Part shown: piece after piece, positions 22,185 through 28,221 of the stretch
Layout of the letters: each line of letters begins with the position of its first letter
Numbering within the stretch: position 1 is the stretch's first letter
From: an uncultured bacterium
GTDB lineage: Bacteria; Fidelibacterota; Marinisomatia; Marinisomatales; JACNKV01
DNA: 64,000 bases
Direction of reading: 5' to 3'
NCBI GenBank assembly: GCA_964388155.1
Contig: CAYLYH010000002.1
Location: forward strand, 9,887-73,886
Position numbers and translations under genes: made by a program
Notes under the pieces: model-generated
What the model was told of the DNA's origin: nothing
The model's database searches: none
Seen by the model: only the letters and a program-made list of their open reading frames with translations

Positions 22185-22982
22185 TTATGAAAGGATATTA
22201 CCTACTTCAATTTCCTTAAAGTAATTAACAGTACCAACTTTTAGTTCAACAGTAGCATCTTCATCACTTACGATGATGCCATGAGGATGAAGCTGCATCA
22301 TACTGATTGTCCACATATGATTTACGCTCTGCTCAATCGCTTTTGATAACGCTCTTGACTTATTATGCCCTGAAACCAAAATTATGACTTCACCAGCATC
22401 CATTACGGTTTTAACACCAACAGTAAGTGCTGTTGTTGGTACTTTAGATAAATCATTATCAAAGAATCTGGAATTATCGATGATTGTTTCTTGGGTCAGG
22501 GTCTTAATCCTTGTAAGTGAGCCAAGTGAAGATCCTGGTTCATTAAATGCAATATGACCATCAGCTCCGATACCGCCCAAAAACAAATGAATACCGCCGG
22601 TGGCATCTATTTTCGCTTCATAATCCGCGCATTCTTTTGTCAAATCTTCAGCATTACCGTCTAAAATATTAATATTTTCTTTTTGAATATCAATATGGTT
22701 AAAAAAGTTATTATACATAAAAGCATGATAACTTTCAGGATGATCTTCCGCAATACCGACATATTCATCCATATTAAAAGTAACAACATGCTTAAATGAC
22801 ACTTCGCCAGCTTTATGTAATTTGACCAACTCCTGATAGGTTCCTACTGGAGATGAACCGGTCGGCAATCCCAATACAAACGGTTTTTCCTTTACCGGAG
22901 CAAAATTATTTATTTTCCTGACGATGTGTTGTGCCGTCCATTTACTCATTCGATCATAGTCTTTTTGTATGATTAATCTCAT
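22185..22982 (-). CDS. nagB: Glucosamine-6-phosphate deaminase
   Basis: [42 protein letters not shown]. Confidence 0.96.
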
Positions 22983-22999
22983 ATTATCTTTCCCTTTAT

Positions 23000-24961
23000 T
23001 TATTTGATAAAATTCGTTATTTGTTGATATTTTTCTTCAATGCTTTGTGCCGTATTTTTCAATGAGAGAATAAATGCATTATCTTCCATTGTGCCCCGCA
23101 CTTCTGCGAAATCATCTTCTGCATTTCCATCAATTCCAAATCCAATTTTGGCAATGGAATCAAATTCTTTTCCTGCATCAGCTGTTACCATATTGAGTAG
23201 TTTTAGAGACGCCGTCTTCCATTCCTCAAAAAATGTTGCTAATCTTTCGTCGGTTAAATCAGAAATTCTCTTGTCATTCATTTTTTCATACGATTCCAAA
23301 AACCAATTCCACTCATCAGCACGATAGGCATCATAAATAGTTTTTAGGGCTGTTTGAAGTTCTTCAATGCTTGTAATGTCTCCATCCTCTATAAATTTTA
23401 TCAGACGGTCCACTCTTTCCCACTGACAAAGAAGCCCGCTCATATCTATCCATCGCCCGCCATTTGAAAGACCATCTTCATCCGGGATAAATAATTCACG
23501 TAATTTAGCAGGTTTTTTTTCTTCCATTCTACGAATTACTAAATCGCCATAATATTTTTGCAACGCCAACTTATAGTAACGGCTACATGTTTTAAGGAGA
23601 AGTCTTTTTATCCTTGCTCCATTAATTTTAACATATTTTTGACTACGGTCGGTTTCTTTACTCAGCCTTAACAATGTGTTTTCTCCCTGTATCATTTTCT
23701 GAGCCGTATAAGGGGATAAAACATCGAAGATGATCAAATCTAATACATCTTTATTTTTTCGCTTATCTCGTTTCGGCCACTTTTCACCATCGCGAAGAGT
23801 TCCCACCGTAAAGAAATTCATTCCCGGCACCAACGTCGGTTGCCCGTCTTCTTCGTTGACATAAGAAAATGGAAAATCTGATGAATCAAAATTTGCCGTA
23901 TGTTTCCCCATGACGACGGAAAACGCTCCCACTCTACTCGGCCATAACAAGTAGGAAAACGAACCTGTCTTGCACCCGCGTTCCATAATTCCTTGGTGTA
24001 AGGGACCAAGTTTATACATATGATTCGATTGGTTTGTCCCACTCCCGGCATTGTAAAACGAAACCATCGTTGCAATCAGAAGCGTTGAGCGATGATGAGT
24101 AACAGAATAAGGTCCGGCAAATACAGAGCATGCTTCAGAATGGAATCCTTCTGAATTTGCGAAAAATACGGAGTTCTCTGCTGAAAACTGTTTTCCGATT
24201 TTGGTTGCTTCACCAATCAAGGAACCGCTAACCATTGCACCATCAGCAACACTTGCGCCTTTTTGAATAGTGAAATCATTCATTATTACGCCATTTTCAA
24301 TAACTGTTGGTGCTTCCGGTGATGAGTTAATTGTTCCGTTTTTCAGCGACTGGACACCTTTAATAACTGCAGAGTTACCAATCCGAACATTATGAATGTT
24401 TTCACAGTTCTGTATTTTTGCACCTTCTCCAATAATCGCTTGGTCATTTTTCAATGATTCTGCATATTTATCAACAAAAGTATCTAGTTTTTTAATGAGA
24501 GCTGGATTGTGACGATAAGCCACGGTCATATACGCAATTTGGGCACTGGTTTTATCACTGATTTTTAATTCTCGTCCGCCGCCTTCATTCCATACATCAA
24601 TTGCATGACCGTTCCCAAATGTGGATCCTTTCGTGGATGAAATTGTTCCAACATTTTCAATCAGAACATTACCACCAACATTTAGATTTGAAAGCCACCC
24701 ATTCACATTAGAAATTGAAACTCCGTCACCGATTATACAATTTTGCAGTCGTGCATTCGTAATTCCGCTTTTTCTTGCAATCCCATCTTCGATGACACTC
24801 CCATCCAGCTTTCCAAGGATAATGCTTCCCTGAAATTCAGTATGTGTAACTGAACTTGCGTCAAATTCCTTTGAGACTTCTATCAGATTCCAATCATCAC
24901 ATTTACAACGATTTTGGATTAACACATCTATTTGTTCACCGGATAATTTCTTTGTATTCAT
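23000..24961 (-). CDS. DUF4954-family protein with left-handed beta-helix (hexapeptide) repeats
   Basis: [17 protein letters not shown], hexapeptide runs ([25 protein letters not shown]...), [44 protein letters not shown]. These motifs are as I recall them for DUF4954. Confidence 0.8.
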
Positions 24962-24965
24962 AATT

Positions 24966-25999: not shown

Positions 26000-26002
26000 T
26001 CG

Positions 26003-27217
26003 TTAACTCCTTTTTTGTTTAGTTATATCATTTGCCGTCTTGTACGTATCTTTTGCGATGGCGCCTTCTTCATCCGTAGGGATAACAAATACCTCTATGG
26101 CAGAATCCTGTGCATGTATTTCTGCTTCGATCCCGGCAGCCTTTTTGTTTGCGTCACTATTTAACTGAATCCCTAAATGGTTCATATTTTGCAAAATTCT
26201 TTCACGCATTTTTACACCGTTGGCACCAATTCCACCGGTAAACACAATCCCGTCCACAGAATCCAAAACGGCCATATATGCTCCAATATACTTCCGGACT
26301 TTATACGCAAATATATCTAATGCCAGTTGAGCATTTTTGTCACCGACTTCTGCCTTCTCTTCAAGGTCCCGCACATCATTGGAGGTGTCGGAGACACCTC
26401 TCAATCCTGATTGTTTATTGAAGATATTTTCAACATTCTTGATATTATATCCTTTTCGAACAAGATAAAAAATAACTGCCGGATCCAAATCACCTGTCCG
26501 TGTTCCCATCGCAACACCTTCTAACGGTGTAAGCCCCATACTTGTATCCACAGATTTTCCGTTACCAACGGCAGTGATTGATGACCCATTTCCCAAATGA
26601 CACGTAATCAGGTTTACATCATACTTACCTTTTCCCATGATTTCAGCCGTTCTTCTGGCAACATATCGATGAGAGATACCATGAAAACCGTACCGCCTTA
26701 TTTTATACTTTTCATACATGTTCAGCGGAAGAGCGTAGAGATAAGCACTTTTTTGTATCGTTTGATGAAACGCTGTATCAAAACAGGCAATTTGCGGAAT
26801 ATCCCCTAACATTTCACGAGCGGCTTGTATCCCTGCTAAATTCGGCGGATTATGTAACGGAGCAAGGTCGGCATAGTCCTCAATCGCTTTCTCTAATTTT
26901 TCGTTAACCAGTACCGATCCGGAAAAACTCTCCCCTCCATGCACAACACGATGACCGCACGCACCAACTTCTGACATCGATTTAATAGCACCTTTTGTGT
27001 CATCCGTTAGCATTATTCTCATAATCTCCAATGCTTCATTGTGATCTTTCACTGAAATATTTTTTATTATTTCATCTGCACTAACCTTTTGCGTAGCTTT
27101 AGACTCTATCTCACCAATTCTTTCGATAGCTCCTTTTGCCATTACCGTATGATCAGGCATATTATAAAGCTGGTATTTCAACGATGAACTTCCGCTATTG
27201 AATACTAATACTAACAT
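26003..27217 (-). CDS. ackA: Acetate kinase
   Basis: NSGSSSLKYQL, GHRVVHGG, APLHNP, FDTAFHQT, RRYGFHGISH, CHLGNGSS, DTSMGLTPLEG, IPTDEE. Confidence 0.95.
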   Translation of the reverse strand: MLVLVFNSGSSSLKYQLYNMPDHTVMAKGAIERIGEIESKATQKVSADEIIKNISVKDHNEALEIMRIMLTDDTKGAIKSMSEVGACGHRVVHGGESFSGSVLVNEKLEKAIEDYADLAPLHNPPNLAGIQAAREMLGDIPQIACFDTAFHQTIQKSAYLYALPLNMYEKYKIRRYGFHGISHRYVARRTAEIMGKGKYDVNLITCHLGNGSSITAVGNGKSVDTSMGLTPLEGVAMGTRTGDLDPAVIFYLVRKGYNIKNVENIFNKQSGLRGVSDTSNDVRDLEEKAEVGDKNAQLALDIFAYKVRKYIGAYMAVLDSVDGIVFTGGIGANGVKMRERILQNMNHLGIQLNSDANKKAAGIEAEIHAQDSAIEVFVIPTDEEGAIAKDTYKTANDITKQKRS

Positions 27218-27228
27218 CTTACTCTCGT

Positions 27229-28221
27229 CTATTTATTGCTTTGAGTTTGTACCGATGTAATCGCAGTAACAGAGGTAATATCTTCCACAGATGCTCCCCG
27301 CGACATATCATTTACTGGCTTTGCAAATCCTTGGAGTACAGGTCCTATCGCTTGTGCGCCTGACAAATACTGCACTAATTTGTACCCAATATTCCCGGCA
27401 TCAAGATCAGGAAATACCAGTACATTTGCTTTTCCGGCCACGTTACTATCAGGCATTTTTTTGACTGCCACCCGCGGAACAATCGCTGTATCGACTTGCA
27501 TTTCACCATCCATTTCAAATCCTGTATTCATTTCTTTTGCAATTTTCAATGCTTCAATGACTTTATCGGCATCCTTATGACGAGCTGATCCATTCGTTGA
27601 AAATGAAAGGAATGCAATTTTAGGTTCTATATTGATTAATGCTTTGGCATTGATACCGGAAGCGACAGCAATCTCTGCTAATTCCTTTGCAGTGGGCTGA
27701 ACGTTAACAGCAGCATCGGCAAAAATAAGGGTTTTATTTTTTTCTCCTTGAAAGTCAGGGAGAAGCATAATAAAAAAGCTTGAAGGTGTTGACATTCCCT
27801 CTTTAAATCCGACAGTAAGTGACGCCGCTTGAATCACTGAGGCGGTAGCACTGGCAACTCCGGCAACCATTCCATCAGCATCGCCTTCTTTTACCATCAT
27901 TCCGGAAAACGGGAGCGGTTTTTTGACCAGACGTTTAGCGATTGCTTCCCGCACACCACGGGTTCTACTATACGACACAGCATATCTTTCTATAAAAGTT
28001 TCTTCTTTATTGGATTGGATTATTATTCCGGTTAAGGACAGTCCCTTTTCAGATGCAATTTGTTTTATTTCGTCCTCATCTCCGATAAGAATCGGTTTCG
28101 CTATGCCCAACGTATAAGCATTAGAAGCCGCTTCAATAATACGTTCATCTTTTCCCTCAGGATAGACAATCCTCGCAGGTGTCGCCTTAGCAGAATTCAT
28201 AATATTTTCAATCAAAATCAT
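27229..28221 (-). CDS. pta: Phosphate acetyltransferase (short Pta)
   Basis: IVYPEGKDERI, SSFFIM, FLSFSTNGSA, DGEMQVD, FPDLDAGNIGYK, GPVLQG, NDMSRG. Start at ATG 28221 after GGAG. Confidence 0.92.
   Translation of the reverse strand: MILIENIMNSAKATPARIVYPEGKDERIIEAASNAYTLGIAKPILIGDEDEIKQIASEKGLSLTGIIIQSNKEETFIERYAVSYSRTRGVREAIAKRLVKKPLPFSGMMVKEGDADGMVAGVASATASVIQAASLTVGFKEGMSTPSSFFIMLLPDFQGEKNKTLIFADAAVNVQPTAKELAEIAVASGINAKALINIEPKIAFLSFSTNGSARHKDADKVIEALKIAKEMNTGFEMDGEMQVDTAIVPRVAVKKMPDSNVAGKANVLVFPDLDAGNIGYKLVQYLSGAQAIGPVLQGFAKPVNDMSRGASVEDITSVTAITSVQTQSNK

Follow-up and report, generated by a model that had tools for sequence, protein, structure and literature searches.

An Undescribed, Widely Conserved Amino-Sugar Operon Built on a GlmU-Like Protein and Its Own Acyl Carrier

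Introduction

N-acetylglucosamine (GlcNAc), a constituent of chitin, peptidoglycan, and host glycans, ranks with the most plentiful supplies of carbon and nitrogen both in the sea and in the gut, and its catabolism is assumed to run via the deacetylase NagA. Here, we explore a stretch of 64,000 nucleotides (hereafter, the window) from an uncultured bacterium of the order Marinisomatales, in which six contiguous genes, pta, ackA, a gene for an acyl carrier protein (ACP), a GntR-type regulator gene, a gene of the uncharacterized family DUF4954, and nagB, stand together at positions 22185-28221. Our findings identify this block as a variant of the amino-sugar operon that is conserved widely yet has not been described, with a GlmU-like enzyme and its own carrier at its center; a literature search for the gene combination returned nothing relevant.

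The closest described arrangements are the nag operons of Escherichia coli and Bacillus subtilis, in which nagA and nagB are controlled by NagC or by NagR/DasR-type repressors. The block shares with them an E. coli-type NagB, a putative HutC/UTRA repressor, and a putative operator whose core (GTATAGAC or GTCTAGAC) resembles what we take to be the dre sites of DasR/NagR-type HutC regulators; a NagC-like ROK regulator occurs in one homologous locus, and genes of amino-sugar and peptidoglycan breakdown lie nearby. Unlike the nag operons, however, it lacks NagA and carries DUF4954, a dedicated ACP, Pta, and AckA instead.

Two groups of left-handed β-helix enzymes offer parallels to DUF4954. With the acetyltransferase domain of GlmU, including alt-GlmU (TIGR03991) and the archaeal GlmU-type proteins, it shares the β-helix, the signature E-x13-H-x13-N-x-G-[AS]-G-T-x3-N at equal spacing and, likely, an amino-sugar phosphate as substrate; yet it has no nucleotidyltransferase domain, comprises 653 amino acids with a helical insertion and a C-terminal DUF6819 domain, and its partner is apparently ACP rather than coenzyme A (CoA). 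LpxA and LpxD, in turn, are acyl-ACP-dependent and act on UDP-GlcNAc and UDP-acyl-GlcN, so that the acyl group likewise moves between a glucosamine derivative and the thioester of an ACP; the bond made by LpxD is an N-acyl bond, and this enzyme docks ACP on its C-terminal helical domain, and the step catalyzed by LpxA is thermodynamically unfavorable and pulled by later ones. Their structural matches to DUF4954 are nonetheless weak (target-normalized template modeling score [TM-score] ~0.2-0.3), the acyl group handled by the block would be acetyl and not a long hydroxyacyl, and there is no lipid A context.

The remaining parallels concern energy conservation. Pta-AckA leads from a thioester through an acyl phosphate to ATP, and substrate-specific catabolic operons can encode a Pta or Ack of their own for this route (EutD in eut, PduL/PduW in pdu, and TdcD in tdc); PlsX has a Pta-related fold able to phosphorolyse acyl-ACP, a likeness to the block Pta in mode of action and not in family. 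In eut, pdu, and tdc the thioester is an acyl-CoA derived from oxidation, whereas the block has no dehydrogenase and would use a protein thiol carrier and an acyl group taken from an amide. Catabolic ornithine or putrescine transcarbamylase with carbamate kinase, in the arginine or agmatine deiminase pathways, likewise performs an unfavorable phosphorolytic cleavage of an N-acyl (ureido) group pulled by an ATP-making kinase, although there the group is carbamoyl, whose breakdown to CO2 and NH3 adds drive, no carrier protein takes part, and the proteins are unrelated.

Results

The Six-Gene Block

The window corresponds to C2:9887-73886 in an assembly of 2.33 Mb with a completeness of 93.5%. 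Gene families were assigned with Pfam and NCBIfam profiles, and the block comprises the following features:

27229-28221, minus strand: pta (PF01515, 361 bits; TIGR00651, 323.7 bits against a cut-off of 311.2)
26003-27217, minus strand: ackA, acetate/propionate kinase (TIGR00016, 479 bits)
25766-25999, minus strand: ACP of 77 amino acids (PF00550, TIGR00517; motif DLGADSMQSIELVAGFEEEFDIEMDEDDAL)
24966-25718, minus strand: GntR regulator with UTRA domain (PF00392 and PF07702)
23000-24961, minus strand: DUF4954 and DUF6819 protein of 653 amino acids (PF16314, 600.8 bits; PF20683, 124.4 bits)
22185-22982, minus strand: nagB (TIGR00502, 419.8 bits)
28246-28266, minus strand: operator TTGTATAGACAAGTTAACATC, 24 nucleotides upstream of the pta ATG and conserved in 9/9 aligned upstream regions

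The intergenic gaps, in order from pta, measure 11, 3, 47, 4, and 17 nucleotides, and no terminator-like sites were seen inside the block on the coding strand. For pta, the ATG at 28221 was preferred over a TTG at 28266, since the latter overlaps the operator. The layout given in the preliminary description, six contiguous minus-strand genes with gaps of 3-47 nucleotides behind one upstream operator, is thus borne out. The block contains no phosphotransferase system or NagK gene.

A GlmU-Type Signature in DUF4954

DUF4954 is a family of proteins of ~650 amino acids with ~8,000 homologues at E <= 1e-10, and 1,171 in a 50%-identity representative library at the same E-value; we found no paper on its function, and a sequence search of the PDB returned only noise, no solved structure matching by sequence. 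An AlphaFold2 model built from 115 diverse sequences (predicted local distance difference test score [pLDDT] 96.4, predicted template modeling score 0.94), which replaced a first model from 60 close homologues with a pLDDT below 50 in the conserved core, displays a long left-handed β-helix into which helices are inserted at residues 140-169, with DUF6819 forming a helical domain at the C-terminus. When this model was compared with the PDB using Foldseek, the top 18 matches were GlmU entries, the best of them an isolated acetyltransferase domain (4aa7_A; target-normalized TM-score 0.63, E = 1.5e-5, 196 aligned columns); LpxA and LpxD came next, and LpxD-ACP complexes were matched with the first model.

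The residues invariant in 115/115 homologues include E276, H290, N304, G306, S307, S312, and N313. The spacing of E276, H290, N304, S307, and N313 (E-x13-H-x13-N-x-G-S-G-T-x3-N) is identical to that of E349, H363, N377, A380, and N386 in E. coli GlmU, which we take to be the general-base histidine and the residues binding sugar and acetyl group. Among the 15,219 open reading frames (ORFs) of the genome, the pattern H-x13-N-x-G-[AS]-G-T-x3-N is found in DUF4954 and alt-GlmU only, both with a Glu at -14. The match is clear only as an ungapped motif: generic local alignment of DUF4954 with GlmU is confused by the hexapeptide repeats, and hhalign gave no alignment between the DUF4954 profile and E. 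coli GlmU, that is, no profile-level sequence similarity. Equivalents of R333, K351, and K392 of GlmU, presumably phosphate-binding, were not matched in DUF4954, nor was an NTP_transferase domain detected in the protein by Pfam or NCBIfam. Given the spacing of the signature and the GlmU-like fold, DUF4954 is best read as a GlmU-type acetyltransferase predicted to act on the amino group of a glucosamine phosphate. The earlier assignment to the left-handed β-helix enzymes of the GlmU/LpxA/LpxD kind gains support from both the model and the signature.

A Block-Specific Pta and a Dedicated Carrier

Apart from those of the block, the genome has no true Pta or AckA, the further matches of these types being the PTA domain of a malic enzyme and a ptb/buk-like pair; the only other TIGR00016 match is a butyrate-kinase-like gene on contig C33. 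In the block Pta the catalytic residues are kept, S307, R308, and D314 aligning with Ser311, Arg312, and Asp318 of PgPta. At the position of PgPta Arg135 and MtPta Arg133, occupied by Arg in 5/5 aligned solved Ptas, the block protein carries Gln131, which is invariant in eight block Ptas; the position of PgPta Arg89 and MtPta Arg87, the other Arg in contact with the nucleotide phosphates of CoA, is Ser or Ala in the block Pta, with an alignment uncertainty of +/- one residue. In the crystal structure, PgPta Arg135 (MtPta Arg133) contacts the β-phosphate of acetyl-CoA, and its mutation alters the Michaelis constant for CoA (PMC6461089). Gln131 would therefore fit a thiol substrate without the CoA nucleotide, such as the phosphopantetheine arm of ACP. 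The block Pta belongs to a block-specific subfamily, for which a carrier protein may be the substrate; it is not a member of the PlsX family, to which its match is weak (TIGR00182, 34.6 bits vs. a cut-off of 243).

The block ACP keeps the phosphopantetheine-bearing Ser, the D/E-S motif being invariant in 13 sequences, and shares 57-94% identity with the block ACPs at 11 other loci, compared with only 37% with the AcpP of its own genome. AcpP (motif GADSLDTVEL) is encoded on contig C22, in a run of ORFs that fits plsX-fabH-fabD-fabG-acpP-fabF, the neighbors having been assigned by size and position only and not profile-scanned. With this second ACP present in a fab-like run, the block ACP is a dedicated carrier, a distinct and conserved subfamily as judged from its sequence.

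Conservation of the Block across Genomes

Among the 61 genomes of the window's order, DUF4954 is present in seven, each time with a nagB from a single sequence class as its immediate neighbor. The same six-gene run, recognized by ORF size and order, recurs in five other genomes from three families of the order; the seventh carrier, G050, has ACP-GntR-DUF4954-nagB behind the same operator, without pta-ackA. The distribution of ackA (TIGR00016) follows that of the block: it occurs in 6/61 genomes, exactly those with the full block and always inside it, and is absent from the 54/54 genomes of the order without DUF4954 as well as from G050. Confined in this way, ackA is not a housekeeping gene in the order and is inherited with the block.

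Counting full and core versions, the block is found at 13 loci, in the window's phylum (Marinisomatota/Marinimicrobia) and on contigs labeled Spirochaetota, KSB1, Planctomycetota, and Lentisphaerota. Individual loci read as follows:

L035, contig outside the order: same six genes
L036, labeled Spirochaetota: same genes, the contig ending in a gene fragment just past DUF4954, where nagB is expected
L037, KSB1: pta-ackA-ACP-DUF4954, with nagB convergent
L038, Planctomycetota: ROK-nagB-pta-ACP-DUF4954
L039, Lentisphaerota: pta-ackA-ACP-DUF4954-nagB-ROK
L051: DUF4954-nagB-ACP, its DUF4954 only 42% identical to that of the window

The genes flanking the block differ from locus to locus, and the block proteins are unusually similar between phyla: cross-phylum identities to the window proteins amount to 52-59% for DUF4954, 54-64% for Pta, and 57-68% for ACP, with NagB at 64-67% in seven loci and at 38% in the Planctomycetota locus. 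In none of the 13 loci does nagA, the usual neighbor of nagB, occur. The recurrence of the same gene order in five other genomes and on unrelated contigs goes far past what chance would produce; the block is conserved and travels as a unit. The linkage of DUF4954 with ACP, Pta/AckA, and NagB thus holds in other genomes, in full or core form at 13 loci from several phyla. An empty site could not be shown in the two genomes of the same genus that lack the block, since they also lack the permease found at its flank. Across loci the neighboring genes are catabolic, comprising peptidoglycan-peptide peptidases, NamZ, glycoside hydrolases GH18 and GH2, an SSS transporter, and NahK-like and GalT-like genes.

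Regulator and Operator

The operator TTGTATAGACAAGTTAACATC is a 21-nucleotide imperfect palindrome around GTATAGAC, found upstream of the first block gene in 9/9 aligned GntR-bearing loci, two of them contigs from outside the order, one labeled Spirochaetota. Its invariant columns in the nine-locus alignment read T-TAGACA-GT-A-C-T. It stands directly downstream of a conserved (A/T)(A/T)CTTG element at ~28274-28281, and in G050, where the shortened block starts with the ACP gene, it lies ahead of that gene. The GntR gene and the operator co-occur in 9/9 loci, and the GntR protein is the presumed binder; it belongs to the HutC subfamily (winged helix and UTRA effector domain), scoring under the cut-off of every named NCBIfam subfamily. 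The exact operator copy is unique in the genome, and a search of the genome for further sites gave none that was convincing, the near matches that were checked lying inside or at the edge of long ORFs; hence, the regulator appears to control only its own operon. Where the GntR gene is missing, the locus carries either a NagC-like ROK regulator or none at all, the protein in the Planctomycetota locus being a NagC/Mlc-like ROK protein. Both regulator types, HutC/UTRA and ROK, are typical of amino-sugar catabolism.

Amino-Sugar Genes Elsewhere in the Genome

The NagB of the block is of the hexameric E. coli type, 62% identical to the E. coli enzyme without gaps, and identical to it at residues 151, 152, 158, 160, 161, and 254, which we take to be the allosteric site for N-acetylglucosamine 6-phosphate (GlcNAc-6-P). 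Canonical NagA was found neither in the window nor in the 93.5%-complete assembly (TIGR00221 at E <= 1e-3; phmmer with E. coli NagA), so that the lack of nagA previously noted for block and window extends to the genome-wide search. NagA is likewise absent from the six other carriers of the order, the KSB1 carrier has no NagA match, and a PIG-L/LmbE deacetylase, a possible hidden NagA, is absent from this genome and from 5/6 other order carriers. The simpler alternative once offered, that Pta and AckA assimilate acetate released by a NagA encoded elsewhere, is consequently removed for this genome and the six other carriers of the order.

GlmS is present in this genome, as in 10/11 carriers, together with alt-GlmU (TIGR03991, 321 bits), which makes the synthesis of uridine diphosphate-GlcNAc independent of the block. 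A MurQ homologue (258 bits to E. coli MurQ; contig C22:4092-6454), directly followed by a PGM/PMM-type phosphohexomutase, and a ROK-family kinase are also encoded; thus, GlcNAc-6-P is made in this cell. The murQ-mutase pair could recycle GlcNAc-6-P to N-acetylglucosamine 1-phosphate (GlcNAc-1-P) independently of NagA, in an order nearly without NagA. A second NagB class (E ~1e-93 to 1e-96) occurs in seven genomes of the order, without DUF4954, ackA, or NagA.

Neighboring Genes

Convergent to nagB, at 15822-22097 on the plus strand of the window, lie genes for an S13 DD-carboxypeptidase, an S66 LD-carboxypeptidase, two Gate-domain membrane proteins, a second S66 LD-carboxypeptidase, and an amino-acid permease; this run looks like a module salvaging peptidoglycan peptides, and most of it is found at the same position in G001, G027, G039, and G050, as judged by ORF size. 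Divergent from pta, at 28831-36191 on the plus strand, are an EEP-family (endonuclease/exonuclease/phosphatase) protein, a YidK-like Na+/solute symporter, a GH2 enzyme of 1336 amino acids with chitobiase C-terminal and PA14 domains, and a protein of 278 amino acids without an assigned family. An SSF symporter also adjoins the block in G027.

In family f11 the block is preceded by a protein of 772-775 amino acids (L029 15449-17767 in G027; also L031, L032, and L034) with a NagB-like segment (NF002557-like, residues ~190-360), no Pfam family, and no PIG-L domain; a similar NagB-like ORF of ~690-800 amino acids occurs in ~30/61 genomes of the order and is absent from the window's genus. Divergent from the block of L036, at 3469-6521, stand an unassigned GalT_2-like protein of 352 amino acids, an APH-family kinase (NahK-like by size and family), and an aldose epimerase, adjoined by a solute-binding protein; the set resembles the lacto-N-biose/galacto-N-biose pathway, which yields GlcNAc-1-P.

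Discussion

In this study, we examined an operon that pairs NagB with a GlmU-like protein, its own ACP, and the Pta-AckA couple. We are confident that the block encodes one coupled function, in which an acetyl group probably passes between an amino-sugar phosphate, the thioester of a private ACP, acetyl phosphate, and ATP, and in which NagB links glucosamine 6-phosphate (GlcN-6-P) to fructose 6-phosphate. Our preferred reading, which we put forward tentatively and would not rate as high as an even chance, is that of a self-regulated catabolic operon in which the carrier-protein route is an ATP-conserving substitute for NagA. In such a pathway, GlcNAc-6-P supplied by MurQ, with the ROK-family kinase also present, would free the GntR repressor from its dre-like operator, or GlcN-6-P would do so. 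DUF4954, operating in reverse, would move the N-acetyl group of GlcNAc-6-P (possibly GlcNAc-1-P) onto the phosphopantetheine thiol of ACP, giving GlcN-6-P and acetyl-ACP. In the manner of PlsX acting on acyl-ACP, the block Pta would then phosphorolyse acetyl-ACP to give acetyl phosphate, and AckA would convert acetyl phosphate and ADP to acetate and ATP. NagB, whose identity as an enzyme is clear, would pull the uphill transfer by converting GlcN-6-P to fructose 6-phosphate and ammonia, and a private ACP pool could keep the acetyl-thioester ratio far below that of acetyl-CoA to CoA, making the reverse transfer conceivable.

The catabolic direction is favored because the regulators and neighboring genes are catabolic, because the block is accessory and the biosynthetic genes are independently present, because GlcNAc-6-P is produced yet has no exit through NagA or PIG-L, and because nagA never accompanies nagB in the block loci. 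The partners of DUF4954 point the same way: the block has no AMP-forming ligase, and Pta and AckA are each reversible and ATP-conserving.

Several observations nonetheless weigh against this reading, the most serious being energetic. For enzymes of the GlmU type the downhill direction is thioester to amide, and by our own estimate the reaction GlcNAc-6-P + ADP + inorganic phosphate -> GlcN-6-P + acetate + ATP lies at ~ +20 to +27 kJ/mol under standard conditions. Once the NagB step is counted in, and for acetate and ammonium concentrations between micromolar and 0.1 mM, the estimate becomes roughly neutral to favorable, yet feasibility requires micromolar acetate, low ammonium, and very low (nanomolar) levels of the acetyl-ACP and acetyl-phosphate intermediates; where acetate and ammonium are plentiful, these enzymes would instead work in the direction of GlcNAc-6-P. 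In the Pta, the role of the site with Arg135 is a matter of debate: it is treated as a secondary CoA site, "site 2", in PMC6461089, where its mutation had moderate effects only. The distribution of nagA likewise speaks against the reading: it is absent from 59/61 genomes of the order, carriers or not, so that its absence is not carrier-specific, and outside the order the carrier labeled Spirochaetota has a full NagA (311 bits) and those labeled Planctomycetota and Lentisphaerota have NagA-like matches, so that the predicted anti-correlation between DUF4954 and nagA fails there. Finally, the sequencing runs containing the window sequence are seawater and marine DNA metagenomes, and no RNA sequencing run with it was found. 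Of the original proposal that DUF4954, ACP, Pta, and AckA replace NagA, then, the β-helix enzyme with its GlmU signature, the tight linkage, and the missing NagA all stand, and it is the direction of de-acylation that is strained.

The wider family adds to these reservations. More distant DUF4954 proteins (33-45% identity) often lie outside the block, and DUF4954 without ACP, pta, or nagB occurs on Bacteroidota-like contigs, in two genomes of the Spirochaetota carrier's order, and on one other contig. On the metagenome contig L057, a DUF4954 45% identical to that of the window stands alongside a GH3/beta-lactamase fusion, an SSF transporter, two ROK kinases, an SIS enzyme, a PIG-L deacetylase, PFK, and an MFS transporter, with no ACP and no pta. 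Since homologues occur outside the block, and once near PIG-L, the family does not always replace a deacetylase, even though it belongs to amino-sugar metabolism. One member of 1003 amino acids (L040 5764-8775) matches the DUF4954 Pfam profile twice, in separate places, suggesting an internal insertion; it is encoded close to NAGLU and to an Acyl_transf_3 gene, on a Bacteroidota-like contig with SusD-like neighbors.

Other explanations deserve consideration, foremost that the same enzymes work downhill. AckA and Pta would then charge the private ACP from acetate and ATP, DUF4954 would N-acetylate GlcN-6-P (or glucosamine 1-phosphate), and NagB in reverse would make GlcN-6-P from fructose 6-phosphate and ammonium, so that GlcNAc-phosphate would arise without glutamine or acetyl-CoA. 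This agrees with a GlmU-type signature and fold, which denote an N-acetyltransferase with thioester to amide as its natural direction; all five enzymes fit such a single thermodynamically downhill pathway, and the PGM/PMM-type mutase beside murQ could convert GlcNAc-6-P to GlcNAc-1-P. The route would, however, be redundant where GlmS is present (10/11 carriers), together with alt-GlmU here, and hard to reconcile with a block that is accessory (DUF4954 in 7/61 order genomes) and set among catabolic genes. In known cases amino-sugar phosphates are what releases HutC/NagR-like and NagC-like regulators, which would make the pathway self-inducing through its product, and NagB keeps the site that presumably binds its activator GlcNAc-6-P, from which positive feedback would result; moreover, an acetyl donor made from acetate and ATP brings no clear benefit when acetyl-CoA is available. 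We consider this direction less likely than the catabolic one, though a serious competitor to it.

DUF4954 and ACP might instead acetylate another acceptor within amino-sugar catabolism, AckA and Pta recycling acetate to acetyl-ACP and an unrecognized hydrolytic enzyme carrying out the deacetylation. The acceptor could be the terminal glucosamine of imported oligosaccharides, which would enable exo-N-acetylhexosaminidases, following the logic of lysosomal HGSNAT, or the product could be GlcNAc-6-P as inducer and allosteric activator of NagB. The forward direction is chemically natural, the catabolic L057 locus (GH3, two ROK genes, SIS, PIG-L, and PFK, without ACP or pta) and the DUF4954 near NAGLU and an Acyl_transf_3 gene on the Bacteroidota-like contig would suit it, and the NagB-like protein of 772 amino acids adjoins the block in family f11. 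Yet the window's genome has neither NagA nor PIG-L nor this protein, which would leave acetylated sugars without an exit; the constant partnership of DUF4954 with NagB, and not with a hexosaminidase, would go unexplained, and ATP would be spent for no obvious gain. On balance, this seems unlikely. Mere co-regulation or co-transfer, with pta and ackA as ordinary fermentation genes and the ACP as an unrelated spare carrier, a reading that comes near to the simpler alternative mentioned above, is highly improbable: pta and ackA are common housekeeping genes, and their catalytic residues are intact here, but ackA is missing from the 54/54 order genomes without DUF4954 and from G050 and lies inside the block in all six bearers, the order pta-ackA-ACP-(regulator)-DUF4954-nagB recurs across phyla between unrelated flanks, the ACP and Pta are block-specific subfamilies, and the genome has no NagA to release acetate.

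Overall, either direction of the coupled reaction would be new biochemistry. If the catabolic reading is true, the amide bond of an amino sugar would feed substrate-level phosphorylation, one ATP being gained per amino sugar from its acetyl group, in a pathway spread over several phyla of glycan-degrading bacteria; this would matter for energy-limited marine anaerobes, as well as for metabolic models derived from genomes, in which such organisms count as non-users of GlcNAc. If the forward reading is true, the block would provide an ACP-dependent route to an N-acetyl-amino-sugar phosphate from ammonium and acetate. In both cases DUF4954 and DUF6819 gain a testable function, and the block Ptas emerge as a subfamily whose substrate may be a carrier protein.

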